From: a virus
Lineage: Duplodnaviria; Caudoviricetes
DNA length: 54,124 nt
Virus record (IMG/VR): IMGVR_UViG_3300037421_000099
Span: 1 to 54,124 of that record
Reading direction: 5' to 3' (one strand)
Shown: one piece after another, positions 20,349 through 54,124 of the stretch
Numbering within the stretch: position 1 is the stretch's first letter
How the letters are laid out: each line of letters opens with the position of its first letter
Notes under the pieces: generated by a model
Told to the model about the DNA's origin: nothing
Databases searched by the model: none
Seen by the model: the letters and a program-made list of their open reading frames with translations, nothing else
Translations under genes and position numbers: made by a program

Positions 20349-21530
20349 TTATTTCTGCTCGACCGCGAAAACGCTTGCGCCACCGATCCCGACGGTGAGA
20401 TTGCCGGCGTTACCTTGACAGGTGATGCGCCAGAAGTGGGCCAGCAGATCAGGGGCCGAGTCGAGCGCTGAGATCTCGACGCTCCAATCTCCCGATGCAG
20501 CTGCGGTCACAATGGTCGTCTTGATTACGCCCAGGTCCCGGATGAGAGAGACGGTGATGCGTTCTCCCGGAACGGAGTCTTGCCCTAACATCTGTCCGGT
20601 GACGAGATAGAGGCCCGCCCCTTGTCGCGTCAGAGTCCCTACGGACCGGAACGAGACGATGTTGGCGGGCCCGAGCGCACCGACATTGGTATCGTTCAGA
20701 TCGTTGGTTTGCGCGAGCTGGTTTAGGGCGTTCTTGACGAGGATGGGAACGGGATTCCAGTTTGTACCGCCCGGTGACGCGTCGTAGCTCACCTGCGTTG
20801 CTGTATCGACGGGGATGAGCCCCACGCCGGTCTGCGGTGTGCCTACGGTTGTATTTGCGTCGAATGACAGGGTCATACCGGCGCCAGCGTTCGCCCAAAA
20901 GTTCCCGGCTACATCCGATAGGTTGAATGCGTCCACGAACCAGGAGCCTGCGGCTCCACCTAAGACGGGCGTTATTCCGTCGCCGAGCAGTGAGTTGTCG
21001 AGCACGACCAGGAGCCCGGTATGGCCCGCGACCACCACAGCGAACGGCGCTTTGCCCGCTTCGGAGAGGATCTGGCAATTTTCTCTCATCCAGATCGTGC
21101 TGCCGTTGACCATCGTCACGACCGGCAAGGTGCTTGCGCTCTGGAACGTCACGTTGCCCTCGATCGTCATCGTCGTAAACGCGAGGTGAGCCCCTTGCGC
21201 AAACGTGACGATGCCTCCGAGGAAGTCGGAGGCGTTGCCATAAGTCCCGAAGGTGGTGTTGTCGACGTTCCAGCCGCCGGCTGGCTGTCCCGCCGCGGGG
21301 ATCGTGATGGGCGCGAGCGACGCGTCGAACCACACCCATCGTGGTCCTTGCGCCTGCGAGTAGGCAGAATAGAGAGACGGCCAGTCGGTGAATACGTTGC
21401 CGCTGGCAATACCCCCAGGTCGGAGAACAAATAATGATTCCAGGTTGGGTGTGACCGCACCTACAATCAGACGTATAAGCGCTTCGAGCTTTTTGACGCG
21501 CCCCTGCAGATCGAAGTCGTCAGTGCTCAT
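20349..21530 (-). CDS. putative spike/fibre virion protein
   Basis: N-terminal short coiled coil, then Gly/Ala/Thr/Asn-rich beta-type body. Confidence 0.55.
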   Translation of the reverse strand: MSTDDFDLQGRVKKLEALIRLIVGAVTPNLESLFVLRPGGIASGNVFTDWPSLYSAYSQAQGPRWVWFDASLAPITIPAAGQPAGGWNVDNTTFGTYGNASDFLGGIVTFAQGAHLAFTTMTIEGNVTFQSASTLPVVTMVNGSTIWMRENCQILSEAGKAPFAVVVAGHTGLLVVLDNSLLGDGITPVLGGAAGSWFVDAFNLSDVAGNFWANAGAGMTLSFDANTTVGTPQTGVGLIPVDTATQVSYDASPGGTNWNPVPILVKNALNQLAQTNDLNDTNVGALGPANIVSFRSVGTLTRQGAGLYLVTGQMLGQDSVPGERITVSLIRDLGVIKTTIVTAAASGDWSVEISALDSAPDLLAHFWRITCQGNAGNLTVGIGGASVFAVEQK

Positions 21531-21952
21531 GGATAATTCTTCCAGCCGATGACGGCTTTCACATCGTTTCTGCTATCGAGCGTCTTGGTACGCATGCGTC
21601 GAAAGCCTTTCGGGCTCTGCTGACGCAGCCGGATCGTGTTCTTCTTGAGGTCGGGCCTGGACGGTTTGAAACCGTTTCGCTTCGCCCAGCCCCACGCTTG
21701 TTTTACGGTGAAGCGATCGCGCGGGAAGATGAGCGACTGCACTTCGCTAGGGCTCTCGCCCGCGAGAAGCGCTTTTCGCCGCTTGGGCGTGGCTACGGAG
21801 GTGATGACACCGGCCGAGCCGATTACGATGCCTGAGATCGTCAGAACGGCCCCCACGGGTCCGAGAACGGTTCCACCGCGTGACCAGAGTAGGCCACCCA
21901 GGATCGCAGCTCCAATGCCGCCTCCGATGGCCCATTTTTGCGTGTCGTTCAT
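21527..21952 (-). CDS. membrane protein with basic C-terminal domain
   Basis: Two N-terminal TM segments; VQSLIF...W...RLRQ domain. Confidence 0.6.
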   Translation of the reverse strand: MNDTQKWAIGGGIGAAILGGLLWSRGGTVLGPVGAVLTISGIVIGSAGVITSVATPKRRKALLAGESPSEVQSLIFPRDRFTVKQAWGWAKRNGFKPSRPDLKKNTIRLRQQSPKGFRRMRTKTLDSRNDVKAVIGWKNYP

Positions 21953-22353
21953 CGTCGTCTCTTCCGTGAGAGAGCGTACGCGGCCCCGGCCCCCATGCCT
22001 ACGATCACCGCCCCGGCGATGGCGGCGCCCCATGGGAAGCTGCGGGCCAGGATGTCCTGGTAGGTCGACCAGGGCTTCCAGTTGGTGCCGCCGCTACTGA
22101 TCTGCAGCGCAGCGTGCGCGTTGTAGTCTGGGTCGAGTAGGCTTGACTCGTCGTACTGGGGGTGCGCGAGCGTGTTGATCTGCCAGAGGCCGAAGCTGCG
22201 CTCCGGGAGCGCGTTAGGGAGCGGTCCGTGGATGTTCGTCGCGTTCGTGTTGCCGCTGCTCTCGCGCAGTGCGATCGTCGCTGCGAAGCTCGGATCGGGA
22301 AAGCCCGTGTCGGCGGCCAGCTGGCGGAGCTGCGCGAACGAGAGAACGGACAT
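21949..22353 (-). CDS. lytic transglycosylase with C-terminal membrane anchor
   Basis: IALRESSG, SFGLWQIN, LLDPDYNA, WKPWSTY, then TM and RKRRR. Confidence 0.85.
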   Translation of the reverse strand: MSVLSFAQLRQLAADTGFPDPSFAATIALRESSGNTNATNIHGPLPNALPERSFGLWQINTLAHPQYDESSLLDPDYNAHAALQISSGGTNWKPWSTYQDILARSFPWGAAIAGAVIVGMGAGAAYALSRKRRR

Positions 22354-22406
22354 GCGCTCGGGTGTAGGCTACCCGTTCTGTCGCATGTGGGCTAGACTGC
22401 TCACGT

Positions 22407-22580
22407 ATGACGCGGGAAGAGGTTCGGGAGCACGCGCAGGCAGTGAGCGAGGGCAAGCCGCTCAAGAGCTACGTCGAGAGCGCGAAAGTGCTCGCGAAGT
22501 GGGTTCTTGAGCAGATCGTTCCGCCGGCTGTACCGCCGCTGCATGTCCCCTGTCCAGGAGCTATCGATGCGAGTCGTTGA
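22407..22580 (+). CDS. small hypothetical protein (57 aa)
   Basis: Hand translation MTREEVREHAQAVSEGKPLKSY...; TAGACT -10 box just upstream. Confidence 0.4.
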   Translation: MTREEVREHAQAVSEGKPLKSYVESAKVLAKWVLEQIVPPAVPPLHVPCPGAIDASR

Positions 22581-24887: not shown

Positions 24888-27800
24888 TTAGCGACGGGGC
24901 TTTTTCTTGCCGATGTAGCGCGAGCGAGCAACGCCGTCGGAGTCTCGCCAGTAGGCGTACCAGTAGGGCCCGTGGGGGCACTTGGTGCAGCCAGGCTTGC
25001 TGCATCGAACGTACTGCTGGGTCAGGGTGGCTTCGTCGGGAACGCCGTCTAAGCGCTCTTGCGCGGGCGGCAGAGGGTTCGGCTTGGCGTAGCCGGCGCG
25101 CACTCTGCTGGCGCGGCCTGCGGGCGCCAGGAGCTTGAACAGGCCCACGACGGCGGCCGTGCCGAGGACGGCGGTCGCGGTTACGACCACCGCCTTGTGT
25201 GCAGACTCATCTGTCTTGTGTGCAGACTCAGCAGTTTCGCCAACGGTCTTATTTACAGGCTCTACAGTCTTGTGTGCGGACTCATTAGTCTTATTTACAG
25301 ACTCAGCAGTCTTATATGCAGGCTCAGCAGTCTTATATGCAGGCTCATACGTAGAGCCCGTGAGCTGATTCATCCTCCGCCGGATGAACTCGAGCTCTTC
25401 GTCGTCGATGTTTGCGGACTCATCCGCTTTATAAGCGGACTCATCTAGTCGCAGGAGGTTCCACCACGACCACGTAGCGCCTCCGCCTCCTCCCGAGCTG
25501 GACACGCCGGGGATGAAGCCACGAGGCCCTGGGGGCGGTTGTGGAGGCGTGGGAGGAGTCGGCGGGGTGGGGTTGACCGGCGAGAGCGGCGGCTCTTCGT
25601 AGACCGACAGCGGTGGACGAATCCGCCGCTGCACGTCTTCGAAGACCCACCCGATGTTGGCCAGGACAACGAAGCGCGGTTCGAGCGCCGGGTCTTCAGG
25701 GACCGGTGGCTTGGTGCGTTCTCTTGGAGTCGTCTCCGATGGCACCCATCCGATCGACGGCAGGACGACAACGTGAAGCGTTTGGATGACCGGGTCTTCC
25801 GGAACGGGCGGCTTGGTGCGCTCGCGCGGCTGCACGTCGCTGGGTACCCATCCGATCGACGGGAGTGTGCTCTTGAGCGGGAAGTCCGCTTCGGCCAGGG
25901 CCGGCGGCTTTCGACGAGGGGTAACTTCGTCCGGAACCCACCCCAGGCCATCGATTCGGATCTGCGTTAGCGGCAGATCGAATTCGACGGGAGGCTTAGT
26001 GCGCTCTCTCGGTTGAACGTCGACACTTACCCAACCGATCGACGGCAGCACCGTGGGCAGGCCGTGTAGGATCGGGTCTTCTTGGATCGGGGGCTTGGCG
26101 CGCTCTCTGGGCGTCGAGTCCGACGGCACCCAGCCGAAGCTCGAGAGCGAGACGGACCTCGGCTCGAGAGTGGGATCTTCCTGAACGGGTGGCTTCATCC
26201 GCTCCCGGGGAAGGACTTCGATGGGTATCCACCCGATAGAACTCGCTACGAACGGAGATGTCGTTTTGACGAGCGGATCTTCTTGGATGGGGGGCTTGGT
26301 CTTCTCTCTGGGAAGAATGTCAACAGAGAGCCAGCCGATTGAAGGAAGCGACGGAGCTGTCAGTGATTTGACGAGTGGGTCTTCTTGGACTGGAGGCTTG
26401 GTGTGCTCACGAGGCTGGACGTCGACCGGGATCCACCCGAGTGACAGCAGAGGCTTGGTAGCTGTCAGCGCCGAGTCTTCTTGAATGGGCGGTTTCGCGC
26501 GTTCTCTGGAAGAGACGTCTGAAGGGATCCATCCAAGGTTCGAGAGGAGCGACTTGCCGAGCGCCGGATCTTCTTGAACGGGAGCTTTGGTGCGAGGGCG
26601 CGGGATAGTTTCGACAGGGATCCATCCGAAGCTCAGGAGCGGCGGCTTGGTCGACTCGAGCAGCGGATCTTCTTGAATGGGAGCCTTCGCACGAGCACGC
26701 GCATCAGCCTCGACGGGCATCCACCCGATGCTTCTTGGCATCAGGGGCGTGAGCGGCATTGGCGGGTCTTCGAAGGTCTGCTTTCTGCGAGATGGAAGCG
26801 TTTCGTCGCTCGCCCATCCGCTCGTAAACGGAATGGTCGCCGTGCTGGTGGCTTCTGATTCGGGACTGATATAGGGACGTCGCCGTGGAAGTGTTTCGTC
26901 GCCTACCCATCCAAAACTAGCGATCGTCTGAGCTTTGGCACTAAGGATTGGATCTTCTTGAATAGGCGCTTTAGTGCGTTCGCGCGGCTGAAAGTCGGAC
27001 GGAATCCATCCGATGTTGGTTGTGATAACCGTTCGCTGCTCTATTGGGGGATCTTCTTGAATTGGTGGCTTACTTCTTTCGTGCGGAAGTATGTCGACCG
27101 GTACCCAACCGATTGATCCGAGAGCCGCTGCAGCGATTCTAGCTAGAGCTTCAGGCCCTGACTCGAACGTATATTTGGATCCGTACTTGCGAGGTAATAC
27201 AAACTCATTTTCGTTATGAATTTGTTCCGGCTTGAACGCTACTAGATTGATGTCCCATGCTGCGCTTGAGGCCTGCGTGGGGGCCGACGTTTGCGAGCCC
27301 GCCGCGCCGGCGACCTTGTATTCGACGCAGTTACCGAAGGGATCATCGAGAAACAGTTGCGTCCAGCCCGCGGTACCTGCGCTGACGTGATTGGTAACTG
27401 AGGTGAGTGAGAGAAAGATTTCTCCGGCGAATTTAGAGGTGCCCGAGATTGATGGCGAACCGCTGCCTCCGGTCGTCACGTTCGCGACATCGAGCGGCGA
27501 CACGGTGTCCGCTCCCGTGATGTAGATGGCGGCGATCGACGCGAACGCATCGGTCAGGTTCCCTGATGCGGTGAGGGTGATCGTGTTGGCTCCCGCGCCG
27601 GCCGCCGCGATGTTCTTCGCGTAGTACGCGTACAGGCCGGGCGTCGCATTGCTGGCCCCCGGGATGTTCGCGTACGTGTTGCCGGACGCATCGATGATCG
27701 ACGAGATGCTCAGAGCCGGATCGAGGTTGATCAGCAGGAGGAGTAGCCCACCCGCGGCCTGCGCTGCGGGGAGCGCGATCTTGAGCTTCGTCGCCCAATC

Positions 27801-28094
27801 GCTACCGCCCGAGCCTGCCCCCCACTTGCCCCACACCCAGGACTTGCCGGCGATTGTCGTGCTCGCCGCCACGTGCAGCGTTGCGGATGTGCCGGTGGGA
27901 AAGGCGTCAAAGGTTGTCGTCAGGTCCGCGCCCGCCGCTCCAGCGCCGCGGAGAGTAACGCTCGTGTTTGCGGGCGTTACTGACGTGAACGGGATGTCTC
28001 CGCCGCTGACCGTGAACGCTGTCTGCGTAGCGGTAACGTTGCCGTTATTCAGCCAGTACGTGACGGTTCCGGAGTCGGCGACTGCGCAGGGCAT
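24888..28094 (-). CDS. large modular virion-associated repeat protein (beta domain, 16 GW repeats, heptad repeats, TM, DUF6788-like C-terminus)
   Basis: 1068-aa ORF; repeats SIGWxPxDxxPRERTKPPIQEDP; C-terminal RCSKPGCTKCPHGPYWY. Confidence 0.75.
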   Translation of the reverse strand: MPCAVADSGTVTYWLNNGNVTATQTAFTVSGGDIPFTSVTPANTSVTLRGAGAAGADLTTTFDAFPTGTSATLHVAASTTIAGKSWVWGKWGAGSGGSDWATKLKIALPAAQAAGGLLLLLINLDPALSISSIIDASGNTYANIPGASNATPGLYAYYAKNIAAAGAGANTITLTASGNLTDAFASIAAIYITGADTVSPLDVANVTTGGSGSPSISGTSKFAGEIFLSLTSVTNHVSAGTAGWTQLFLDDPFGNCVEYKVAGAAGSQTSAPTQASSAAWDINLVAFKPEQIHNENEFVLPRKYGSKYTFESGPEALARIAAAALGSIGWVPVDILPHERSKPPIQEDPPIEQRTVITTNIGWIPSDFQPRERTKAPIQEDPILSAKAQTIASFGWVGDETLPRRRPYISPESEATSTATIPFTSGWASDETLPSRRKQTFEDPPMPLTPLMPRSIGWMPVEADARARAKAPIQEDPLLESTKPPLLSFGWIPVETIPRPRTKAPVQEDPALGKSLLSNLGWIPSDVSSRERAKPPIQEDSALTATKPLLSLGWIPVDVQPREHTKPPVQEDPLVKSLTAPSLPSIGWLSVDILPREKTKPPIQEDPLVKTTSPFVASSIGWIPIEVLPRERMKPPVQEDPTLEPRSVSLSSFGWVPSDSTPRERAKPPIQEDPILHGLPTVLPSIGWVSVDVQPRERTKPPVEFDLPLTQIRIDGLGWVPDEVTPRRKPPALAEADFPLKSTLPSIGWVPSDVQPRERTKPPVPEDPVIQTLHVVVLPSIGWVPSETTPRERTKPPVPEDPALEPRFVVLANIGWVFEDVQRRIRPPLSVYEEPPLSPVNPTPPTPPTPPQPPPGPRGFIPGVSSSGGGGGATWSWWNLLRLDESAYKADESANIDDEELEFIRRRMNQLTGSTYEPAYKTAEPAYKTAESVNKTNESAHKTVEPVNKTVGETAESAHKTDESAHKAVVVTATAVLGTAAVVGLFKLLAPAGRASRVRAGYAKPNPLPPAQERLDGVPDEATLTQQYVRCSKPGCTKCPHGPYWYAYWRDSDGVARSRYIGKKKPRR
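25195..25445. repeat. 21-bp tandem repeats with internal dyad GACT-N4-AGTC
   Basis: Units such as ACAGACTCAGCAGTCTTATAT and GCGGACTCATTAGTCTTATTT; AT-rich. Confidence 0.7.
25600..27120 (-). repeat. 16 degenerate coding repeats of about 30-34 aa
   Basis: 16 GW-anchored units counted in the translation; boundaries approximate. Confidence 0.8.
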
Positions 28095-28100: not shown

Positions 28101-29720
28101 TTATCGAATCCCGTCTGCGACCAGCCATCGGCTCAATGCCGTAGGTGTGGCCTGCACGAGCAGAACCCAATCGTTGTCACCGCCTGCGTTTGCGCCTGGC
28201 ACCGTGAACGTGTGGCTGCCGACGCTTACGAGAGACGCGATAAACGTCCGCTGTCCGTTGGTCGGGTCGATCCAGTACGCACTCGCGTTGCTTCCGAGCT
28301 TGGTCATGTCCACACCAAAGCTCCCGGAGTGCGGGTCCGGTACGTAGGCCAGTAGGCACGACTTGTCGTCGGCCGCAGACGACACGATCCAATCCGTGCC
28401 GCCGCTCGGCGGATTCGTGTCGCTGTAGCTCGCGGCAGTCCCCTGTCCCGACGTGATGATCGTACCCATGGCCCCTAGGTTTTCGGGGATGAGTCGCCAC
28501 CAAGGAACCGTTGCAAGAAAGTTTCCGACTTGCGCATGATCGAGCGTGGCTACATGACTAAGTAGATTCGCCATGCCACCTATCGTACCGCTCACCGCGC
28601 AAAGCCAATTCCACGTGACTCCGCCGTCTACGATGCCGCTTCCTGTTCCTGTCGGCCCGCCGCTCCCTGCACTAGTGCCGGCGGCAACACATTGGTACCA
28701 ATTGCCTGAGTGATTCACGATTGTGTTGATCAGGTACGTGAAGCTGGCCTGCCAGCAGGTTGCAAGGCTTCCCGTGACTCCGTCTACACTGGTCGCGAAA
28801 CCCCAGAGCGGCGTGAGCGCGTTCATGCAGCCGCCGCATTGCGACGTGATGGAAGCGGCCCATGACTCGTATCGCGAGATCGCGCGCGTGACCGAGTGTT
28901 CCCCGAAGTACCAGTTTTCGGGTGAGATCATTGGCTGTCCATCGGGGTAAAGACTGCGCCCCATGGCGTACATAACTGGCTGCGAGTACAGGCTACGAGC
29001 TGTTATACGACTAGCGAAGTCTGTTTGATCCTGTTTGTAGTTGCGCTGCCAGTGGTATGAAACCGGCTGATTGCAGCCGTTCGCTTGCAGGCCCTTCAGG
29101 ATCTCGAGCGAACGAAGCGCTCCCGTGCCTCCGTTAGTTGGGAGCGTATCGCCGCCACAGATCCAGATAATGTTGCTACGGCTCGCAAAGCCGGTAAAGG
29201 CGCCGTGTCCGTTGGCGAGGTACGCGCCGAACGCGTTACATACCCCGGTCGTATTCGCGCTGTTCGTTACAGTGGTGAGCCACCCGTCGGCCGCGCCCTG
29301 ATTGAAACCCGAGTAACAGAATGCAAATGCGATTGTGATGCCGCGCGCGCCGGCATCATCCACGAACCCAGCGACCTTGGAGAAGTACGCGTCGTTCGGC
29401 GTAGAGAAGTCGGCGTCGTGATTCCCAAAGACGCCCGTCCACGTCGTGCCGGACGTGTTCTTCAGAAAGGGAAGCTCGCCCGTCTGCAAGGCGGGCGCAT
29501 TGCTTGCCGACCAGTAGGGCACGCTTGAACACACGTACGTGTAGAGAACCGTGAACCCTTTCGCCTTGCGATCGTCCAGGTACGCACGCCAATCTGTCTG
29601 ACTCAGGTTGATGTGCGCATCCCACGACGCTTCGCCGTGTATGCGAAACGGTATAGATCCGTTCGCAGTATCGACGAAATATCGACCGTTACCGGAAACA
29701 GCGGGTGAGGGGACCGCCAT
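28101..29720 (-). CDS. DUF4038 (GH140-like) hydrolase with CBM-like insert and collagen-binding-like C-terminal domain
   Basis: NGRYFVD...PF...YLDDRKAKGF, NIIWICGGD, ENWY, PWWRLIP, YWIDPTNG, NDWVLL. Confidence 0.8.
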   Translation of the reverse strand: MAVPSPAVSGNGRYFVDTANGSIPFRIHGEASWDAHINLSQTDWRAYLDDRKAKGFTVLYTYVCSSVPYWSASNAPALQTGELPFLKNTSGTTWTGVFGNHDADFSTPNDAYFSKVAGFVDDAGARGITIAFAFCYSGFNQGAADGWLTTVTNSANTTGVCNAFGAYLANGHGAFTGFASRSNIIWICGGDTLPTNGGTGALRSLEILKGLQANGCNQPVSYHWQRNYKQDQTDFASRITARSLYSQPVMYAMGRSLYPDGQPMISPENWYFGEHSVTRAISRYESWAASITSQCGGCMNALTPLWGFATSVDGVTGSLATCWQASFTYLINTIVNHSGNWYQCVAAGTSAGSGGPTGTGSGIVDGGVTWNWLCAVSGTIGGMANLLSHVATLDHAQVGNFLATVPWWRLIPENLGAMGTIITSGQGTAASYSDTNPPSGGTDWIVSSAADDKSCLLAYVPDPHSGSFGVDMTKLGSNASAYWIDPTNGQRTFIASLVSVGSHTFTVPGANAGGDNDWVLLVQATPTALSRWLVADGIR

Positions 29721-29969: not shown

Positions 29970-30308
29970 TCACTCTAGGCCACACGCCCGGAGTACGCTA
30001 CGGCGCTGATGTGCTCTCTTGGAGAGCTCGACGAACGCTTTGAATTCCTGCTCGCGCTCGACATTGCCGGTCTGAAACCCGTTGACCAGCCCCGCATCGT
30101 ACTGGTCCAGCCGGCGCTCGAAGTTCATGCAGCGCCCGAACGCGTGACACTCGTCGCAGACCCACCACTGACACGACCAGCACTTGGCGACCTCGAGTTT
30201 CTTACCCTCGAGAGAGTACATCGGGACGATCTGCTGACAGTGGCAGCAGGTATGGGTCTCCTGTACCTGCTGCCGAAAGCCGTCGCCCTCGAGTATCCGA
30301 GCCGCCAT
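29970..30308 (-). CDS. Zn-binding hypothetical protein
   Basis: TCCHC, KCWSC, VCDEC. Confidence 0.6.
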   Translation of the reverse strand: MAARILEGDGFRQQVQETHTCCHCQQIVPMYSLEGKKLEVAKCWSCQWWVCDECHAFGRCMNFERRLDQYDAGLVNGFQTGNVEREQEFKAFVELSKRAHQRRSVLRACGLE

Positions 30309-30314
30309 GGCGGC

Positions 30315-30767
30315 TTACTGCTGGCAGTGGCAGTTGACGCCGAAGTTGCCGGCCGCGCCTCCGACGGAGGTGACGATCTGCCAGCCGACGCCGGTCGCAG
30401 CGCCAGCGGTGATGATGATCTCGTCTGCACGGTCGTAGGCCTGCCACTTGTAGGTCAGGCGCGGGTTCATCACGACCTCTTCCAAGAACCCCGAGTAGGT
30501 CGGCTCGATGGTCGCGTTCGCGCCGCCCGTCATCGTGAAGGTCAGACCTTCGTCCGAAGGGTCGGTCGACTTGGCGGTGACGGCTGTCGTCGTTCCGAGC
30601 GCGGTCGCGCGCGCGAGCTTCCAGTCGATGCCCTGGTCTGACGTCGGCGTGCCGTCCGTCCAGCAGTTGTACGAGAGGATGCGCGGCCGAGTGTTGGTGC
30701 CCGAGCCGAGGATCAGCGGGGTCTTGGTGATTGCGACGGCGATTTTGCCAGGCCAGAGGAGGTTCAT
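30315..30767 (-). CDS. putative small beta-rich virion protein
   Basis: Thr/Gly-rich beta-like composition. Confidence 0.55.
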   Translation of the reverse strand: MNLLWPGKIAVAITKTPLILGSGTNTRPRILSYNCWTDGTPTSDQGIDWKLARATALGTTTAVTAKSTDPSDEGLTFTMTGGANATIEPTYSGFLEEVVMNPRLTYKWQAYDRADEIIITAGAATGVGWQIVTSVGGAAGNFGVNCHCQQ

Positions 30768-30916: not shown

Positions 30917-31444
30917 TCATGGTGTGCGCCGGACGTCGAACATGAAGTGGATCCGCGGCGTCTCGCCGTAGTTGTGCACGGAGTGCTCTTCGCGCGTGTC
31001 GACGAGGTACGCGGTCCCCACTTCGAGCTCGAAACCTGTTCCGTGCGTAGGTGAGTCCCATACGGTGATGTTGGCGCCGTCCGGGCATGGGGTTGGAGTC
31101 GTAAGCGGCACGTGTACGCGTGTAATCCATTCCGGCGGCTGCGCGTCTCGGTGCCGGTCGATGTGGTGGCCGGGCATGACGACGGAGAGCATGCGGTTGT
31201 ACGCTTCGGGCGCGGACAGTAGAGCCATGTGAGCTCTCAGCTCGAAAACGAGCCTATCCGTCCTATCGCCGAACCCGTGCCACTCCAGATCATTCACCAT
31301 CGCCGGCCGCAGCTCTCCGTTCAGCCGATGCTGCTGCGGCCACTCCTCGAACGGGATGGCCGTGATCCAGGCGACGAGATCGGACACGTCGACCTTGCAG
31401 AGAGGTCGAACGTGCTTCCAGAGTGAAGCTGCCTGAGGGCTCAT
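30917..31444 (-). CDS. aspartyl/asparaginyl beta-hydroxylase-like 2OG-Fe(II) oxygenase
   Basis: PGHHIDRHRD, RVHVPL, EHSVHN..TPRIHFMFD. Confidence 0.85.
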   Translation of the reverse strand: MSPQAASLWKHVRPLCKVDVSDLVAWITAIPFEEWPQQHRLNGELRPAMVNDLEWHGFGDRTDRLVFELRAHMALLSAPEAYNRMLSVVMPGHHIDRHRDAQPPEWITRVHVPLTTPTPCPDGANITVWDSPTHGTGFELEVGTAYLVDTREEHSVHNYGETPRIHFMFDVRRTP

Positions 31445-40090: not shown

Positions 40091-40103
40091 GACGCGCGGA
40101 CCT

Positions 40104-40305: not shown

Positions 40306-40311
40306 GTTGTC

Positions 40312-41049: not shown

Positions 41050-41095
41050 GGGTGTGTGCCTCGTGAGAAGTTGGACGGGTGTCAGCGTGAAGTAT

Positions 41096-41550: not shown

Positions 41551-41570
41551 GGGTGTGTCTCCTTTGCACT

Positions 41571-41612
41571 GCGATTGCGCCGGCCCGTTTGACGGGGCCG
41601 GCGGGGTCGCAA
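41571..41612 (-). promoter_or_regulatory. conserved intergenic hairpin with CCC/CAA internal loop (copy A)
   Basis: GCGA-CCC-CGCCGGCCC...GGGCCGGCG-CAA-TCGC. Confidence 0.5.
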
Positions 41613-41613
41613 T

Positions 41614-43326
41614 TCAAGCGGAGCGAACGATCGTGAACAGAGCGACGTTGACGTTCGTCCCTTGCGTTTTGAACGTTCCTTCGGGGAGGTCTTCCCACGT
41701 TGCCGCTATCGGCTTCAGCGCGTCACGCTGGCGCGGTCCGTTCGCGCAAAGGCCTACCAGGATCCCACCTTCACGGAGCATCGTGAGAGCGTGGCGTACG
41801 TGCTTGATATCGGCGCCGTCGGCGAAAGGCGGGTTCATGACGACGCGATCGAACGTGTCGAGGTCGCCTGGATTGAGCGCGAGAAAGTCAGCGTGTCGAA
41901 CGTTCATGAACGAATCGGCTAGCGCCTTCGCCAAGCGCGCGTCTACCTCAACCGAGGTCACGCACGCACCCTTCGCGCGAATCGCACGCACGAGGTTCCC
42001 TGTACCGGCGGAAGGCTCAAGCACGAGGTGATGCGGTTCGATCTTCGCAAGTTCTACCATGCGGGTTGCGAGGTCCGCAGGTGTGGGAAACAGTTGGGGC
42101 GCCGCGACCACTTGAACGCCCGCCTTCAGTTGCGCGCGCATCGCGTCCAGCTCCGCCGGAGCTTCACGCTTGGCGCGAGGCGGGCTTGAAAGCGCCGCCG
42201 CATTGGTGGCCTGCTCGTCTCGCCTTCGCTCGATCTCGGCGGAGAAGTCTTTGAACCGCGGAGGCGCGTCGCTGCCTTCGACCGGCGGGTCCACCCGTTT
42301 GGAGTCGGATAGATAGATCGCGCACAAGGCGCCACGCACGATCGCGGTCCGAACGCGAGCCCCACGCACGAGACGCGTTCCCTTGTAGTCGCAGTGTAGC
42401 TTCGCGTACTCGGCTTTCGTCATGGTCGCGTAGCCCTCGCCGGGGAAGTTGGCCATCGGAGCGAGGTCGCGACGCGACGGCTTGGGGGGCGTAGGCACGT
42501 CGCCAAGCATCGCCCGCTCATACGCGAGACGGAGATCGATATGGGCGATCCATCGGTTGGCATCCGCAATGATGACCACGTGTCGCGCAAGGGCCTTTTC
42601 GGCCGCCTGAGCCGCGTTGATCTCCCCCTTGTCGAGGCTTGACCAGACGCCAAACGGCGCCGCACGATCGTAGTTTGCAATCTGCTTTGCAGTGGCGTCC
42701 GTGAGGTCGGGTTTACTCCAGGCTTTGGAGTAGAATTCGCTCGCTTTGAGCGAGCGTTCATGTCGGCGCCGATCCGCCTCCAAACCCTTGATCCGACGCT
42801 GGCGCACGCCAGGAAGTTCCTTGTACTTGGCATGATGCAGCGCGCCGGCCGCGCGCCGCTCCCAATACTTGGACGTCTCCCACATGCGGATCGTCTTCCT
42901 CATGCCGTTTTCGATCCGTTCGGCATCCTTGCGCGCGTGGCGTTCGGAGTGATGGCCAACGAGGATCGGTTGACCCATCGGAATCCCGTCCGCGATCCGG
43001 TCGACTGCAGCGCGAGCCGCTTGCGCGTCGTGCGCTCGCTTGTCGCTGTAGCCTTCGAACCGTTCCGCGCGTTCCTCGGCTCGATCGCAAAGGCTCGTGT
43101 CCTCGTCTCCGATCTCGCCGCAAAGCTCCAGCAGAAGATCGGCCCGTTCCGGGGTCCACATGGGAGCCACGAAAAGGTCTTGACGAGGTGCCCATATGAA
43201 ACCGGCCGCGCGAACGCGATCGTATGTTTCTTTGGGCAGGCGTGTAGCGCTGTACAAGCGAAGCTTGTTGTCATCCGGGCTATATGTGCCCGTCATGCCA
43301 AAAGCCGTTTCAGGTGCGGCGTTCAT
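41614..43326 (-). CDS. DUF3560 domain + adenine methyltransferase fusion
   Basis: TYSPDDNKLRLY, GQPILVGHHSE, QLFPTP, LEPSAGTG, MNPPF. Confidence 0.88.
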   Translation of the reverse strand: MNAAPETAFGMTGTYSPDDNKLRLYSATRLPKETYDRVRAAGFIWAPRQDLFVAPMWTPERADLLLELCGEIGDEDTSLCDRAEERAERFEGYSDKRAHDAQAARAAVDRIADGIPMGQPILVGHHSERHARKDAERIENGMRKTIRMWETSKYWERRAAGALHHAKYKELPGVRQRRIKGLEADRRRHERSLKASEFYSKAWSKPDLTDATAKQIANYDRAAPFGVWSSLDKGEINAAQAAEKALARHVVIIADANRWIAHIDLRLAYERAMLGDVPTPPKPSRRDLAPMANFPGEGYATMTKAEYAKLHCDYKGTRLVRGARVRTAIVRGALCAIYLSDSKRVDPPVEGSDAPPRFKDFSAEIERRRDEQATNAAALSSPPRAKREAPAELDAMRAQLKAGVQVVAAPQLFPTPADLATRMVELAKIEPHHLVLEPSAGTGNLVRAIRAKGACVTSVEVDARLAKALADSFMNVRHADFLALNPGDLDTFDRVVMNPPFADGADIKHVRHALTMLREGGILVGLCANGPRQRDALKPIAATWEDLPEGTFKTQGTNVNVALFTIVRSA

Positions 43327-44335: not shown

Positions 44336-45439
44336 ATGAATGCCGCTGAAAGCACCGATCTGGCGCCCTCTCCTGCAGCCGAAACGCCATCCGCTGCAGG
44401 AGACGAAAGCACCGCACTGGCGATCGTCGAGCCGGTATCGCCGGGGAGGGAGGCGATCGTCGCGTTTCGACGAGGAGACGAGCCATCGCCTGACGTTGGG
44501 CGACGTGCCGTCACTGTTTACCTAGAGACGCTGCGCAGCGATGAGAGCCGTGCGACAGTGCGTGCCTGCCTAAAACGCGTCGCGACGGCCTTGGACCGCG
44601 ACACGTCGGAGTGGGAGACGCTCCCATGGCACATGCTCACCGCCGACGGAGGGACGCGAGCGCGAGCCGCGCTGCTCGAGACGTATGGACCCACGACGGC
44701 GCGCACGACGCTCAGCATCCTGCGGAGCGTGCTTCGGACCGCTTGGCGCCTTGGCCAGATCGACGGCGACCGCTTCGAACGGGTGACGTCGTGGGGCCCC
44801 GTGAAGGGTGAGAGTCCGATCCGCGGCCGGGAGCTCTCGAAGGAAGAGATCGGCCAGCTGCGCGCCTGGTGCGACCGACAACCGGCCTTCTATGGCGCGC
44901 TGGCCTGGGGGATGATCGCGAGCGCCCTCGGCGCCGGCCTCCGACGCATCGAGATTGTTCGCCTACGGGTGGCCGACCTCGCGGACGACTCGCGGCACCT
45001 ACTCATCCACGGCAAGGGGTCCAAAGTCGTCGTGCACCCGATCGATGCGTGGGTCGGCGCGAGCCTGGAGAGCTGGATCGCGCAGCGCTCGCGCGTCCCC
45101 TTCGCGCACTCGGCGATGTTCTCCTACGCGACTCCCCAGCGCGTGCGTCAGGCGCAGATCTCCAAGTGGCAGGTGTGGAAGCTCCTGCAGGAGGTCGGCG
45201 ACGGAGCGAAGCTTGCGCACTTCACGCCGCACGACCTTCGGCGCACGTACGTGACGGCGTTCCTGCGTAAGCGCGGCGACCTGTCGATGGCGAAGAACCT
45301 CGCGCGTCACGCCAACGAGGCGACGACGGCCCGGTACGACATGCGGAAGAAGGAAGAGATCGCGGAAGCGGCCGAGGTCGTAGGGGCTGAGTGGTTTGGC
45401 GAAGCTAGTTCGTCGGATCGCCGTCGACCTGGATCGTGA
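44336..45439 (+). CDS. tyrosine recombinase (integrase/resolvase)
   Basis: GLRRIE, HGKG, HDLRRT, RHAN..TTARY catalytic residues. Confidence 0.92.
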   Translation: MNAAESTDLAPSPAAETPSAAGDESTALAIVEPVSPGREAIVAFRRGDEPSPDVGRRAVTVYLETLRSDESRATVRACLKRVATALDRDTSEWETLPWHMLTADGGTRARAALLETYGPTTARTTLSILRSVLRTAWRLGQIDGDRFERVTSWGPVKGESPIRGRELSKEEIGQLRAWCDRQPAFYGALAWGMIASALGAGLRRIEIVRLRVADLADDSRHLLIHGKGSKVVVHPIDAWVGASLESWIAQRSRVPFAHSAMFSYATPQRVRQAQISKWQVWKLLQEVGDGAKLAHFTPHDLRRTYVTAFLRKRGDLSMAKNLARHANEATTARYDMRKKEEIAEAAEVVGAEWFGEASSSDRRRPGS

Positions 45440-49399: not shown

Positions 49400-50098
49400 C
49401 TAGAGCCGCACGCCCCTGCGATACGTGCGTGAGTTCCAGTGCTGTTTACGCGCCAGCCTCAACGGGTGTACCTCGCCCTGCACCTGCGCTTCACCGCCTC
49501 CGCTTTGGCGCTTGATCTGATAGCCCCCATACATCGTCTGGAACGGACCCGCGGCGTCGGGTTGACCGATCGATCCGAGGAACGTGTACGGACCCGGTGA
49601 TCCGGGTGAGAAGAACGCCGGTAGAACGAACGCGCTCACGGCGATGCTGTCGATGGGATAGCTCCGCGCCTCGTCAGCATCGCAGGTCTCATTCGCGTAC
49701 TCGTTACCCTGTCCGTCGTCGCGCCACTCGTTGCACGCTGCGTCACCCGCGATCTCGCAGAGCTCGTGCGTAATACCGATCGATACGTCAGTGAGCGTGT
49801 TGCATGTCGAGAGCGCGAGCAGTGCGAACGGAACCGCAGTGCCGGTGCGATCGTGATAGGCGACGGCTCCTGGCGCCTCAGGAAGCGTGTCGACGAGCGA
49901 GTAAACGATCTCACCCGGAGCGATGTCCGTTGGATCCGAACCCACGCGAACGGAGTAGGAGCCGCCCCATGCGGGGGCGACGTCACGATTGAGCTGAATG
50001 GTTGCCGCCGCTGCAACGGCAGCGAGCCATTCCGGCGTGATGCTCGCCGCGATGGGTGAGGCGTCTGTACCCTCGTTGAGTAGAACGACGGTGACCAT
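49400..50098 (-). CDS. zincin-like metallopeptidase
   Basis: AYH, THELCEIAGD, ETCD. Confidence 0.65.
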   Translation of the reverse strand: MVTVVLLNEGTDASPIAASITPEWLAAVAAAATIQLNRDVAPAWGGSYSVRVGSDPTDIAPGEIVYSLVDTLPEAPGAVAYHDRTGTAVPFALLALSTCNTLTDVSIGITHELCEIAGDAACNEWRDDGQGNEYANETCDADEARSYPIDSIAVSAFVLPAFFSPGSPGPYTFLGSIGQPDAAGPFQTMYGGYQIKRQSGGGEAQVQGEVHPLRLARKQHWNSRTYRRGVRL

Positions 50099-50427
50099 CA
50101 CTTGCCCCCGTCCGGCCGAACGACGTAGCCCTCGACGACCATCGCTTTGCGATGCGCACCGAGTAGGCCTGTAGCTTGCGCAGCGGTCACTCCGCACTTG
50201 ATCGTGGTGTCGACGATGGCGGCCGTCTCGGCCTCTCCCCTCGCGATGTCGGCGGAGTACGTAGTCAGGATGCACTCGGCGGCGTTCAAGCCGACGACGA
50301 CATCGGTAGCGGTTTGCGGAGGGATACCGCCGCCAGGCGTGCACGCGTAGTGCGGCATGAGCAGGCAGACAACGACCGCAGCTGCAGACACGAGGCCCGT
50401 AAAGGCCCCGGGGAACATTCTTCTCAT
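50098..50427 (-). CDS. lipoprotein-like protein
   Basis: Hydrophobic N-terminus, then HYAC. Confidence 0.5.
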   Translation of the reverse strand: MRRMFPGAFTGLVSAAAVVVCLLMPHYACTPGGGIPPQTATDVVVGLNAAECILTTYSADIARGEAETAAIVDTTIKCGVTAAQATGLLGAHRKAMVVEGYVVRPDGGK

Positions 50428-50709: not shown

Positions 50710-51240
50710 CTACTGAGCTGCTTCGTCCTCCACCGCGCCAAGAACATCGAAGTCGTGCGCGATGAGTAGCCCTCGCCACTCTGTCGAGGCGACCTCGTAT
50801 ACGTGCCGCACAATCACGCGGTCGCCGACCTTCGAGACCATGGGTTCGTTCACGCCGATGCCGCCGCGACCCTTGTAGACGCGCGAAGTGGCTCGGCCGT
50901 CGAACCCTACGGCATGCGGGTTCTTGCGCATCGCTACGCCGGGTCCGACGGCGAGCACGTACCCGAGCGAGAAGTCTTTCGTACGGCGCTTGCGACCCTG
51001 GGGATCGCGCGACTGCTTCTCGACGAGAACGATGAGCGAGCTCGGCGGCTTCTCGAGATCCGCCAGCAAGACGACGTTGTCTCCGGTGGGAGAGGTCAGG
51101 GGTTGCCAGCCTCCAGGCTCGGCCTGCGCCCATTTGCGAGCGCAAGGCACGCACGCGAGGGTGTAGTCGGTGTTCCGACTCTTGAGGGCCGCGACGTGCG
51201 TGCATCCCTCGTGCTCGAAGACGCAGAGCTGACCCGTCAC
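50710..51240 (-). CDS. groES: GroES/Cpn10-like co-chaperonin with N-terminal Cys extension
   Basis: PTGDNVV, SLIVL, GYVLAVGPG, PMVSKVGDRVI, DVLGAVE. Confidence 0.75.
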   Translation of the reverse strand: MTGQLCVFEHEGCTHVAALKSRNTDYTLACVPCARKWAQAEPGGWQPLTSPTGDNVVLLADLEKPPSSLIVLVEKQSRDPQGRKRRTKDFSLGYVLAVGPGVAMRKNPHAVGFDGRATSRVYKGRGGIGVNEPMVSKVGDRVIVRHVYEVASTEWRGLLIAHDFDVLGAVEDEAAQ

Positions 51241-51590
51241 GCCGCCGCCTTTTTCGCGGCGTCGTTCGCGGCGCGCATCGCCAGAAGCTTCGCAGGAAGC
51301 GTCACGTGCGCATGGATCACAATTCCAGGCGTCGAGCTCGCGAGGAGCGCCGTGAACCCTGCCACGACGCCGTAGAAGATCGTCGCAGCGTCGAGCCGCA
51401 TCGAGGTTCCCAGGCCCGTGAAGTAGGCGACCGTGCCTCCGAGAAACGTTCCGAAGATCGTCAGGTACGGAAGCCACGGCTGGGGGATCGTCTTGATCCC
51501 CAGCAGCGAGCCGGACTGCACGCCATGGGTCACGAAGCCGAGTACGAGACTCAGTATCGTGACCACGACTACGGGAGCCGAGAGAGTCAT
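51237..51590 (-). CDS. three-TM membrane protein (holin-like)
   Basis: Three hydrophobic segments; IPQPWLPYL. Confidence 0.6.
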   Translation of the reverse strand: MTLSAPVVVVTILSLVLGFVTHGVQSGSLLGIKTIPQPWLPYLTIFGTFLGGTVAYFTGLGTSMRLDAATIFYGVVAGFTALLASSTPGIVIHAHVTLPAKLLAMRAANDAAKKAAA

Positions 51591-51826
51591 CGTCCTTCCG
51601 CCTTTCTGCGCGCGCGCGCAGCTCCACCGAGCGCACCGATACGCGCCATGTGCTCGGGTCCGTGCTTGGCAAGCATCGCTTGCGCACCACGGGTGCCAGC
51701 CTCGCTTGCCTCCTCAGAGGAGAACTCGTGAGCGAGACCTTGCGCGTGGGCGGCTTTGCCCCCCTTGCTCGCGATCGCGCGCTGCTTCTCAGGGTCCATG
51801 CCCCTGAATCCACGTTTGGATGCCAT
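51587..51826 (-). CDS. KGG-repeat stress protein (YciG/GsiB-like)
   Basis: RGFRGMDPEKQRAIASKGG...HEFSSEEASEAG; promoter TTGACA-18-TAGGTT just upstream. Confidence 0.85.
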   Translation of the reverse strand: MASKRGFRGMDPEKQRAIASKGGKAAHAQGLAHEFSSEEASEAGTRGAQAMLAKHGPEHMARIGALGGAARARRKAEGR

Positions 51827-51871: not shown

Positions 51872-52123
51872 TCAGAGCTGCTGGTTGATCTTGCCCGGCA
51901 GAACTCCGGTGTGACGGAACCGATTCGGCAGCGCGCCGGTACCCGTCGTCGTCGTGGTCGACGGCGAAGGCGTCATCAGAACTGCAGTGGTGCCCACCGC
52001 GACTCCCGCGACAGCCGCGCCGATGCCGGCGCCTTTCCCCTTGTTGACGAGGTACCCGATGATCGAGCCGACGAGAGCTCCACCGAGACCACCCATGACG
52101 CCAGCCTGAACTTTCGGATCCAT
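51872..52123 (-). CDS. glycine-zipper membrane protein
   Basis: GGLGGALVGSIIG...GAGIGAAVAG. Confidence 0.65.
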   Translation of the reverse strand: MDPKVQAGVMGGLGGALVGSIIGYLVNKGKGAGIGAAVAGVAVGTTAVLMTPSPSTTTTTGTGALPNRFRHTGVLPGKINQQL

Positions 52124-52137
52124 CTGTTTCTGCTCTT

Positions 52138-52833
52138 TCAGCCGTACGGCCATTCGGTGACATCGAGTGACGCGTGCCCGATCGAATCGACGTTGGTGCC
52201 CTGCAGGAGAACCCCGAAGCACACGTTGTTTCCGATGGTGAACGGGACCTTTGTTTTTGTCGTTGGACTCGCAGAAACCTTGCCTGCGAACGACCACGCG
52301 TAGGCTGCGTTGCCGCCGCCCGCTTGCTGCGCAGTGACGGTTGTGCCGGTAGTGCTGTTCGATCCGTAGGTGGCCGTAGGGGTATTGAGGGGCGTTCCGT
52401 CGAACGTGAGACCGGTTCCACCCGCAGCATCGGCTCCGAGAACGCCGCTCGACGGGTTGCTTGCGTTCGCGCCGGATATACCGGCAGCGGTAAAGCTTCC
52501 TCCAGGGCCGATGACGCCAGCTCCAGAGGACTGCAAACCCACGAGCTGCACCAGGACGATGTCTCCGCTCGTGTTGCTGTTGAATCCGATGGATAGCTTG
52601 ACCTCAAAGATTCCCGTCTGCGTCGCCTTCAACGCAGCCGCGAGAACGCAAGTGAGAGCAGGCGCTGTCTGCGCACTGGGGAGTGGCTGACGAGTGGTCG
52701 AGCTGCCGGCTCGGCCGGCGTAGCTCACCCAGTTGCCCAGGGCCGTGACCAGTGGCGAAGCTTGGCCCTGTACGAGCTGAAGCCGTGCAGAAAGTTTGGC
52801 GATGTCCGCTTTCAGTTCGCTGTACGAGTTCAT
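52138..52833 (-). CDS. putative spike/penton-like virion protein
   Basis: N-terminal coiled coil, then beta-rich Gly/Thr body; same layout as 20349-21530. Confidence 0.55.
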   Translation of the reverse strand: MNSYSELKADIAKLSARLQLVQGQASPLVTALGNWVSYAGRAGSSTTRQPLPSAQTAPALTCVLAAALKATQTGIFEVKLSIGFNSNTSGDIVLVQLVGLQSSGAGVIGPGGSFTAAGISGANASNPSSGVLGADAAGGTGLTFDGTPLNTPTATYGSNSTTGTTVTAQQAGGGNAAYAWSFAGKVSASPTTKTKVPFTIGNNVCFGVLLQGTNVDSIGHASLDVTEWPYG

Positions 52834-52840
52834 GGGCTCC

Positions 52841-53431
52841 TCAACGCTTTCGCTTGTGCCGTCGCCAGAGAGCGTACCCCACGACGCCGCCGGCAACGAC
52901 GACGGCGCCGCCCACGATCCACGGTGTCAGGTTGGTCGGCTGAGAGGGGGTGACGACGACAGGCGGACTTCCGCCTCCACCCCCACCTCCGCCGCCTCCT
53001 CCTCCACTGCCGTAAGTGCACGCGGCGGGCACGGTCGCAAGCGACCCGTTCATCCCGCCGAGCGCGTTGGCGAGCGCGCTCGCGCAGTCCTGATCGTAGC
53101 GCCCGTTGTACGCGAGCGTCGGCAGACCCGATGCGCCTGGGTCTTCTGCGTTCCACGCCACCTTGAACGCGTGGACGGACACGTTGACGTCCGATCCGTT
53201 GACGCTGACGTTCGTGCAGTAATTTGAATCGGCGTCGATCGCGTTGGCTGCAACCTGCGCAGCATCTTGAAGACTTGCCGTGTCCCCCAGACCCGCTACC
53301 GGCGCGCGAAGCGTCTTGCCGTTCGACTGGACGTACCAGTGTCTCCCGAGCTTGAGCGGAACGTTCCCGAGACCCGCGCGCGCGATCGGGGCCGGAACCT
53401 CGCCGAGTCCAATCTCTTTCCACGCGTTCAT
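52841..53431 (-). CDS. membrane-anchored protein with GLG motifs and peptidoglycan-binding-like domain
   Basis: Three GLG motifs; VHAFK...NGRYD...AL; poly-Gly; C-terminal TM and RRHKRKR. Confidence 0.65.
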   Translation of the reverse strand: MNAWKEIGLGEVPAPIARAGLGNVPLKLGRHWYVQSNGKTLRAPVAGLGDTASLQDAAQVAANAIDADSNYCTNVSVNGSDVNVSVHAFKVAWNAEDPGASGLPTLAYNGRYDQDCASALANALGGMNGSLATVPAACTYGSGGGGGGGGGGGGSPPVVVTPSQPTNLTPWIVGGAVVVAGGVVGYALWRRHKRKR

Positions 53432-53622
53432 CAGGTCCTCTTCTTCTTCTTGCTGCTCACGACTGCGTAAGTGACGGCGGCTCCCACGAGCCCAGCTCCG
53501 AAAGCGATCGCAGCGACCGCTTTGCCTTCGATCCACACGCCCGGAGGCAGGGTCGTCGCTGGCGCCGTCGGAGGTGACTGTTGAGGCGCGGTTGGGGTGG
53601 GAATCACGTAGCTCAGGCTCAT
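53431..53622 (-). CDS. small membrane protein
   Basis: Pro-rich N-terminus, TM, SKKKKRT. Confidence 0.6.
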   Translation of the reverse strand: MSLSYVIPTPTAPQQSPPTAPATTLPPGVWIEGKAVAAIAFGAGLVGAAVTYAVVSSKKKKRT

Positions 53623-54124
53623 CGTCCACCTCCGACCTGCGGAGGTCCGCCGCCCACGTCCGTCACACCCAAGACTTCGACGTCGAGCGCCATGGCTATA
53701 CGCCATGGAAGAGCCGCGGTCCCGTAGGCAGCGATGAAGCGCCACTCTTGCGGGAGAGCACCCGGATCAGTCGGAGCCGTGATCGTGACGCCTGCGCTCT
53801 GCGCTATGCTCGCCCACCCAGCGAGAAACCCGGGCCCCTCCACAAGCAGATTGAGTGGAGGTAGACCCTGGCTCGCTCCCCAGGGGAAACGTCTGTCGCT
53901 GAAATTGGTGAAGCCACCGATCGCCTGGCCCCAGGGCCGACCTTGATTCGGAGCCGTGTACGCGCCCAGGTTCACGTAGTTGCCACCCGCGCCTACCGCG
54001 ATCGTCTCGTACAGAAGAGCGGGCGTGTCGCTGATCCGGAACGCAAGGTTCTCGATTCCCGCCGCCGCTTGAACCGGCTGCTGATCGCCGAGAATCGTGT
54101 CGTAGAGATTCGGCGGCACGAGGG
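53619..54124 (-). CDS. putative virion protein, 5' end outside window
   Basis: Frame open to the window edge; beta-rich; coupled to downstream membrane genes. Confidence 0.55.
   Translation of the reverse strand, partial: LVPPNLYDTILGDQQPVQAAAGIENLAFRISDTPALLYETIAVGAGGNYVNLGAYTAPNQGRPWGQAIGGFTNFSDRRFPWGASQGLPPLNLLVEGPGFLAGWASIAQSAGVTITAPTDPGALPQEWRFIAAYGTAALPWRIAMALDVEVLGVTDVGGGPPQVGGGR

Follow-up and report, generated by a model that had tools for sequence, protein, structure and literature searches.

The virus record IMGVR_UViG_3300037421_000099, filed under Caudoviricetes, raises the question of what kind of particle its genes build. The window analysed here is the entire record, 54,124 bases long with 57-65% G+C, in which a codon-usage gene call gave 92 tightly packed open reading frames (ORFs) and no tRNA genes were found. 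An earlier sequence-only reading had recognised no tailed-phage hallmark gene in it and had proposed an unusually large, PRD1-like virus without a tail and with a membrane. We find that, on balance, a tailless, membrane-containing virus is the best reading of the lineage to which the window belongs, and that the window probably represents about two thirds of a circular genome of ~80 kb from an undescribed lineage of soil bacterial viruses. The notion of a large, non-tailed, membrane-rich virus survived its test on four complete relatives, none of which gave hallmark matches, and the protein cut by the right end of the window is predicted to be a jelly roll; the PRD1-like frame of the proposal was not supported.

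The window is not the whole genome but a fragment with genes cut at both ends. We treat it as such because it lacks a terminal overlap, because the gene for a Sak4-like ATPase of the AAA_24 family is cut by its left end (profile positions 2-141 of 195 remain) and that for a protein of ~279 amino acids (aa) by its right end, where the minus-strand ORF is open on its 5' side at 54124, and because CheckV estimates the completeness of the record at 67%, which would put the full genome at ~80 kb. Circular closure of the window itself was rejected, as the ends show neither overlap nor inverted repeat and joining them yields no continuous frame.

The cut right-end protein, or a 4-sequence alignment, retrieved no loci in viral or metagenome contigs when used as query; a 12-sequence alignment of its ~280-aa family (A1) gave four IMG/VR loci, and the adjacent 455-aa family gave eight. 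Four relatives are 100% complete by CheckV: G006 (78,382 bp), G007 (73,439 bp), G010 (76,031 bp) and G012 (77,874 bp). Their sequences have end overlaps of 97, 172 (171/172 identical), 110 and 50 bp, respectively, and the assemblies break at different places, twice inside genes, which together indicate that their maps are circular or circularly permuted. Their genes were called and the proteins clustered, giving 19 gene clusters common to all four. The replication side of these genomes encodes AAA_24, a ~200-aa protein, a family-A polymerase fused to a uracil-DNA glycosylase (UDG), a PIF1-like helicase, an SNF2 helicase and a PD-(D/E)XK nuclease. A co-oriented block begins with a RadC/JAB-like protein, an acidic 181-aa protein, a 269-aa Ala/Gly/Val-rich protein, a ~500-aa largely low-complexity (disordered) protein and small membrane proteins. 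It continues with a C-terminally anchored transglutaminase-like protein (a label derived from a sub-threshold Transglut_core match, E 0.0065, and a Cys...His...Asp pattern that we read by eye), a 154-aa protein, a very K/R-rich membrane protein and a trio of 455-, 249- and ~280-aa proteins, and it ends with anchored proteins bearing basic tails, short fibre/knob proteins and GroES. The integrase lies farther on, on the strand opposite to the particle genes, both in the window and in 4/4 relatives.

The trio is the best-conserved part of these genomes, with identities between G006 and G007 of 62%, 55% and 53% as against 51% for the polymerase, and the order 455-249-~280 is kept in all 8 of the 8 loci long enough to show it. 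The 455-aa family comprises 270 proteins at E<=1e-3; among the 120 matches listed, all are at least 50% identical; 18 come from contigs of 65-82 kb and a single one from a contig longer than that. The 455-aa gene was also seen on short contigs of 2.3 and 4.4 kb (loci L107 and L108) in metagenome-assembled genomes labelled Polyangiaceae and Chloroflexota, labels that give a weak hint at hosts.

Several further peculiarities of the block are worth recording. In G006 the transglutaminase-like core protein is split by an intein that carries a homing-endonuclease domain (LAGLIDADG_3, E 1.2e-4; Hint, E 0.0024; L099:5026-7329, G006 59732-62035), apparently at the putative catalytic Cys; the 404-aa G007 homolog (L096:15717-16931) is without intein. 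The basic membrane protein has a K/R-rich N-terminal extension of ~250 residues in G007 (L096:17859-19361, that is G007 37859-39361) and of only ~30 in G006, and in G012 (8161-10083) it reaches 640 aa in total. The GroES-like gene is present as two adjacent copies in G012 (L113:16383-17143) and as one in the other relatives.

Within the window only the stretch at 49.4-54.1 kb belongs to the conserved particle-gene block, whose distal end in the relatives it matches collinearly before running off the right end. Read from that end on the minus strand, the cut ~280-aa gene is followed by those for a 63-aa, a 196-aa and a 231-aa protein, a two-segment membrane protein and a GroES-like protein, then by homologs of G006 70964 and 71520 and later by a glycosyltransferase and, on the other strand, the integrase. 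The 232-aa protein is 37% identical over 254 aa to G006 71520-72308 (E 6e-36), and the 106-aa protein 33% identical to G006 70964-71497. The 196-aa protein clusters with G006 68796, G007 43852/44391 and G010 57302/57796, with no Pfam or PHROG match of its own; a peptidoglycan-binding role is not claimed for it, as PG_binding_3 was matched below threshold (E 0.016) in 1/6 homologs scanned, from one relative. The position of the 231-aa protein was compared with G006 69367 and G007 44830-46785; it gave no family match and only chance-level similarity to PDB sequences (E 0.11-0.64). The GroES homolog of the sequence-only reading held up in part: the ORF at 50710-51690 has no Pfam Cpn10 match, but hhalign aligned it to the Cpn10-positive proteins of the relatives (probability 59%, E 9e-5, 92 columns) and it occupies the syntenic position, its G006 counterpart being a Cpn10 protein at E 3e-13. 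The relatives carry AAA_24 and the ~280-aa gene on one strand, AAA_24 being ~29 kb upstream, in the order AAA_24 - PolA - ... - particle block - A1; the window has both on its minus strand, AAA_24 truncated by the left end and the ~280-aa gene by the right. This arrangement suggests that the polymerase and the principal particle genes lie in the missing ~27 kb, which would correspond to the segment AAA_24 - polymerase - ... - 455 - 249.

The cut gene at the right end is the part of the trio that the window retains. The three closest homologs of the fragment are 274-279 aa long and start ~113 residues earlier. A profile of the fragment and these three homologs matched 352 representative clusters at E<=1e-3 among 1.84 billion (268 at 1e-10 and 55 at 1e-30), and nearly all family members are 260-330 aa in length. 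The sequence-only reading had named 53619->54124 as a protein whose structure should be predicted; AlphaFold2 was run on its family, with a 90-sequence alignment headed by a homolog 77% identical to the window fragment. The resulting model (pLDDT 90.3, pTM 0.88) is an eight-stranded jelly roll with insertions, and on this basis we confidently predict that the ~280-aa protein adopts a jelly-roll fold. The best fold match of the model is the penton of a membrane-containing virus; a BFVD search with it gave nothing usable (best TM 0.16-0.27). Profiles of the 455-aa, ~280-aa and 249-aa families had 0 matches among PDB sequences, hhalign showed no relation between the 455-aa and ~280-aa families (probability 0.8%), and a search of the ESM Atlas gave no usable match for the 455-aa protein and a homolog.

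The six small Gly-rich membrane proteins listed by the sequence-only reading (ORFs 14597, 21527, 24259, 51872, 52841 and 53431) proved real. All 6/6 have a hydrophobic segment, the best 19-residue Kyte-Doolittle means being 1.53-1.98, and their Gly content is 8-18% against a window median of 7.9%. The basic tails ascribed to them are clear K/R clusters directly after the segment in 52841 (WRRHKRKR), 53431 (SSKKKKRT) and 21527 (PKRRK). A further such cluster, SRKRRR, follows the hydrophobic segment (residues 110-128) of the protein at 21949-22353, which is indeed the transglycosylase with a C-terminal anchor that had been described. In the relatives, membrane-type segments are about twice as common in the block (23/84 genes) as elsewhere (45/317 genes) in a crude hydropathy census with a cut-off of >=1.8 over G006, G007 and G010, the values per genome being 7/27, 9/34 and 7/23 in the block versus 15/109, 16/92 and 14/116 outside it.

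Against this background we considered the genes by which tailed phages and PRD1-type viruses are recognised. Six-frame Pfam searches with 15 families (cut-off E<=0.01-0.05 in the window) covered the window as well as the four complete relatives. No match over the cut-off was obtained to the terminase models Terminase_6N, TerL_ATPase, Terminase_3, Terminase_6C, TerL_nuclease and GpA_ATPase, to Phage_portal and SPP1_portal (other portal families were not searched), to Phage_capsid and Phage_cap_E, or to the tape-measure model PhageMin_Tail (tail-tube, sheath and baseplate models were not searched). FtsK_SpoIIIE and Pox_A32 likewise had 0 matches, FtsK_SpoIIIE having matched 14/14 controls. Head-tail_con and Phage_Capsid_P3_N also gave 0 matches, but the control genomes were equally silent, which makes these two negatives uninformative. 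Neither Pfam (37 window ORFs scanned) nor PHROGs (20 scanned) named a morphogenesis gene, and the claim that the 54 kb lack a tailed-phage hallmark is hence borne out for the families covered, tail-tube families not being among them. All 14/14 G006 proteins of at least 390 aa, scanned with Pfam and/or PHROGs, were without a terminase or portal; they comprise DUF932, SNF2, three fibre/pectate-lyase-like proteins, GT1, PD-(D/E)XK, a D5 primase, the polymerase, RadC and four block proteins without match. Strict Walker A motifs were confined to helicases, primases and AAA_24, apart from chance matches in K/R-rich or small proteins. A D5-type primase-helicase occurs in 2/4 relatives, and the P-loop proteins of the lineage-wide core are helicases and AAA_24 only; an uncharacterised 628-aa protein with a strict Walker A motif is found in G012 only. 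PHROG matches of G006 proteins to 'tail fiber' or 'tail protein' were rejected as evidence of a tail, since all fall on Gly-X-Y collagen-like stretches.

These results bear directly on the possibility that the lineage consists of tailed phages (Caudoviricetes) in which Pfam and PHROG models no longer recognise the strongly diverged terminase, portal, capsid and tail proteins, the jelly rolls being cement, decoration or fibre parts and the membrane proteins serving in ejection, as holin-type proteins or in superinfection exclusion. We regard this as unlikely. Such a phage requires three large conserved proteins at the least (terminase, portal and capsid), whereas the 455-aa protein is the only unassigned globular one of at least 380 aa conserved in 4/4 relatives. 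Helicases, primase and AAA_24 are the only ATPases present; 12 tailed-phage families gave 0 matches over the cut-off; the ~280-aa protein at the 'capsid' position is modelled as a jelly roll and not as HK97; and the 'tail fiber' matches do not extend beyond the Gly-X-Y repeats. Other points, however, speak for a tail or otherwise weigh against a tailless, membrane-containing virus. Terminase_6C gave a sub-threshold match (11.7 bits) in a 106-aa ORF of G012, and the 269-aa core protein of G006 has a local PHROG match to 'head closure Hc2' (E 3.5e-7, 79 residues), the sole pointer towards a tailed phage in the G006 scans. The hallmark genes are absent as judged by sequence models only, and the 455-aa protein may yet turn out to be an HK97 capsid, portal or terminase that has diverged strongly. 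Window and relatives have no more than about ten genes in common, at 24-39% identity, so that the contents of the missing third of the window are inferred; the hydropathy census is crude in such Ala/Gly/Val-rich proteomes; and the lipid membrane and the particle itself are predictions from gene content.

The many membrane proteins of the block, the circular maps, the integrase and ParB in the window and the lack of a packaging ATPase of known type would also suit another type of particle, enveloped, pleomorphic or vesicle-borne and without an icosahedral shell, in which the jelly-roll and fibre proteins act as adhesins and the basic membrane protein wraps the DNA, or else a non-viral integrative plasmid-like element. 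Two domains known from plasmids, DUF932 and DUF3560, are likewise present in G006 and the window. Nevertheless, the conserved trio, the narrow 65-82 kb length range and the virus GroES suit a shell under geometric constraint, no P-loop protein of the conjugation ATPase or relaxase kind was found, and the 455-aa family is without match in 72,556 plasmid records; we therefore judge this alternative quite unlikely. A conjugative element, in which the small membrane proteins and the transglycosylase would belong to type IV secretion, was rejected for want of a VirB4/VirD4-like P-loop protein.

The strict PRD1-like version, a larger member of the double-jelly-roll lineage with an FtsK/A32-type packaging ATPase, appears highly improbable. 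The small membrane proteins, the anchored transglycosylase, the collagen-like fibres, GroES and the penton as best fold match of the ~280-aa protein are all consistent with it. Yet FtsK_SpoIIIE and Pox_A32 had 0 matches in window and relatives, which also contain no spare P-loop protein; the P3 model was without match in a search lacking a positive control; and in the relatives the polymerase is of family A and fused to UDG, and the maps are circular, unlike a protein-primed linear genome. The sequence-only reading had suggested looking beyond the contig end for a jelly-roll capsid protein and an FtsK/A32-like ATPase; in the relatives a ~280-aa jelly roll is predicted, and nothing there matched an FtsK/A32 model.

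We accordingly prefer the tailless, membrane-containing virus, and propose how it might work. The shell would be made from the conserved 455/249/~280-aa trio, at least one member of which is a predicted jelly roll, and the many anchored small proteins would stud a lipid membrane. Collagen-like fibres or glycosidase spikes would mediate adsorption, the anchored lytic transglycosylase passage through the wall, and the virus GroES might help to fold the shell proteins. As no packaging motor is visible and a very basic membrane protein belongs to the core, we consider it more likely that the DNA is condensed on this candidate DNA-condensing protein during assembly than that it is pumped into a preformed shell.

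To our knowledge nearly all known bacterial double-stranded DNA (dsDNA) viruses above ~45 kb are tailed, and the known membrane-containing tailless phages are small, all with an FtsK-type packaging ATPase; the present group, which is represented by hundreds of sequence clusters from soil and peat metagenomes and keeps to a narrow size of 65-82 kb, has hallmark matches of neither kind. The 455-aa and ~280-aa families had no match in 50,697 GenBank phage records, belong to no Pfam or PHROG family and are named in their sources only as 'hypothetical protein'. Megablast of the 30-50 kb region of the window against GenBank phages found no close relative, and its primase-helicase has distant matches only (24-43% identity). 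A full-text literature search, with supplements and subscription journals outside its reach, found no published description of such viruses, and the accessible part of a review of membrane-containing phages (PMC6356626) describes only smaller viruses and names P9 of PRD1 as the packaging ATPase. Because these genomes are invisible to surveys based on terminase or major-capsid markers, censuses of soil viruses may undercount or mislabel them. If the tailless reading is true, the size range of tailless phages widens several-fold, and there would be a new way of building a large bacterial virus, with the question of how ~80 kb of DNA is enclosed without a recognisable motor. More tentatively, at something short of an even chance, the lineage may be a major group of dsDNA viruses of bacteria, widespread but unrecognised until now, with circular genomes of ~65-82 kb, no hallmark gene shared with the realm of tailed phages or that of double-jelly-roll viruses, a jelly-roll shell over or under a protein-rich membrane, and DNA condensed by a very basic membrane protein instead of being packaged by a terminase or FtsK-type motor. 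That it forms a group of its own at the highest level is a possibility we hold with comparable doubt.

Table 1. Features of the 54,124-base window, with the basis of each assignment
Feature	Position	Strand	Basis or remark
AAA_24 (Sak4-like) ATPase gene, C-terminus cut by left end	3..488	-	AAA_24 E 4.4e-24
Spike-like 393-aa protein, N-terminal helix and beta-rich body	20349..21530	-	phrog_5596 (unknown function) E 1e-11, residues 24-133
Gly-rich 141-aa membrane protein	21527..21952	-	hydropathy; no family match
Lytic transglycosylase-like protein with C-terminal membrane anchor	21949..22353	-	SLT_3 E 3e-23
1068-aa protein: 16 tandem ~33-aa repeats, C-terminal hydrophobic segment, Cys-rich end	24888..28094	-	translation, repeat count
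Glycoside hydrolase-like 539-aa protein	28101..29720	-	Apiosidase-like E 2.3e-23; Collagen_bind_2 E 8e-10; weak CBM_5_12
Mobile two-gene module: predicted 150-aa jelly roll (30315-30767) and Cys-rich 112-aa partner (29970-30308)	29970..30767	-	
Accessory/DNA-metabolism block, many small ORFs	30917..43326	-	Pfam/PHROG scans
Tyrosine integrase	44336..45439	+	Phage_integrase E 1.5e-20; cluster common to all five genomes
Two conserved genes (232 aa, 106 aa), collinear with relatives	49400..50418	-	function not assigned
ORF with divergent GroES-like domain in last ~125 codons; true start uncertain	50710..51690	-	hhalign and synteny
Gly-rich 93-aa protein, two hydrophobic segments	51872..52153	-	hydropathy
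231-aa protein, N-terminal helix and beta-rich body	52138..52833	-	at relatives' short fibre/knob position
196-aa protein: Gly run, C-terminal anchor, WRRHKRKR tail	52841..53431	-	same-position homologs in relatives
63-aa protein, C-terminal anchor, KKKKRT tail	53431..53622	-	hydrophobic segment residues 36-54, mean 1.96
Predicted ~279-aa jelly-roll protein (family A1), C-terminal 166 codons	53619..54124	-	N-terminal ~113 codons beyond contig end

The remainder of the window (Table 1) does not support the earlier view of 20349-54124 as a single virion gene set, since 30917-49365 encodes a hydroxylase, glycosyltransferases, methyltransferases, a helicase, a methylase and the integrase. The stretch at 20.3-30.8 kb carries spike, lysozyme and glycosidase-type genes, which we infer to be of adsorption, entry and lysis type. 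Both of the proteins that had been described as coiled-coil plus beta spikes exist (20349-21530 and 52138-52833), but the first matches only a PHROG family of unknown function and the second nothing; the first also had 0 matches among PDB sequences. The repeats of the 1068-aa protein are built around the motif GW[IV]P ... PRERTKPPIQEDP and are followed by an acidic Lys-rich repeat stretch that precedes the hydrophobic segment and the Cys-rich C-terminus; this protein had 0 matches in Pfam, PHROGs and PDB sequences. The glycoside hydrolase-like 539-aa protein is a candidate depolymerase or spike.

The 150-aa protein at 30315-30767, another that the sequence-only reading had singled out for structure prediction, is likewise a jelly roll in its model, but it belongs to a mobile module. 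It recurs together with its Cys-rich partner on soil virus contigs of very different kinds (loci L001-L084), in neighbourhoods that vary widely, and an Asp/Arg beta-hydroxylase-like gene adjoins the pair in 7 loci, as it does at 30917-31762 in the window. The ~280-aa family is found in 0/5 viral records carrying the pair, and a Terminase_6N gene (32.8 bits) in 1/5. Since the module also occurs on a terminase-bearing contig and without the ~280-aa family, it is mobile and shared with tailed phages, and is not the capsid gene of this lineage.

Between 30.9 and 49.4 kb lie accessory enzymes, a helicase, a DNA methylase and the integrase. Up to 43326 these include an Asp/Arg hydroxylase, two glycosyltransferases, Methyltransf_24, a UvrD/RecD-like helicase and a DUF3560 plus DNA methylase protein. 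The last is a 570-aa fusion (41614-43326, minus strand) of DUF3560 (E 2.9e-38) to a C-terminal DNA-methyltransferase-like domain (PHROG methyltransferase families, down to E 7e-34). A 12-base tandem repeat at 34094-34343 (20.8 copies, 90% match) lies inside a 272-aa ORF without family match (34012-34830, minus strand) and encodes an Ala/Trp/Asp tetrapeptide array (AAWA/AAWD, 10 motif matches). Given the integrase gene, a temperate lifestyle is plausible. In the left 20 kb, Pfam scans identified a PD-(D/E)XK nuclease, ParB, an exonuclease, an SNF2-type helicase, a methyltransferase-glycosyltransferase, HNH endonucleases and a Toprim-DnaB primase-helicase. The HNH endonucleases are encoded by two adjacent genes (HNH_3 with a helix-turn-helix domain; HNH/HNH_5) at 16163-17289 on the minus strand, directly downstream of the primase-helicase gene.

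Placed beside known systems, the lineage resembles the Caudoviricetes in genome size, integrase, replication and recombination kit, collagen-like fibres and depolymerase-like proteins, but differs from them in that neither the window nor the four relatives have a terminase, portal, HK97-capsid or tape-measure match. With the Tectiviridae, and PRD1 in particular, it shares many small membrane proteins, a virion-type lytic transglycosylase and, in this lineage, collagen-like fibre stretches, for which P5, P7 and the dependence on GroEL/ES of PRD1 offer parallels. The Tectiviridae have a linear genome with inverted terminal repeats and a protein-primed type B polymerase, whereas the window has no inverted terminal repeat and the relatives are circular with DNA_pol_A and UDG, a type B polymerase not having been searched for by name. 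In PRD1, according to the same review, the ATPase P9 packages the linear genome through a unique vertex (PMC6356626). The present lineage differs in having no match to such an ATPase, circular maps, a family-A polymerase, no P3 match (in a search without positive control) and a genome ~5x larger. As to the Portogloboviridae, the fold matches to Sulfolobus polyhedral virus 1 (SPV1), a ~20-kb virus of archaea, are of a weak, generic kind and unaccompanied by sequence similarity; if the broader and doubtful view of a major group of its own were true, the lineage could nonetheless be to bacteria what motor-less viruses such as SPV1 are to archaea, with a genome 4x as large. Among the closest known systems are the Sphaerolipoviridae and the group of Thermus phage P23-77 (HHIV-2, HCIV-1, SH1), with their single vertical jelly-roll capsid proteins arranged over an internal membrane.

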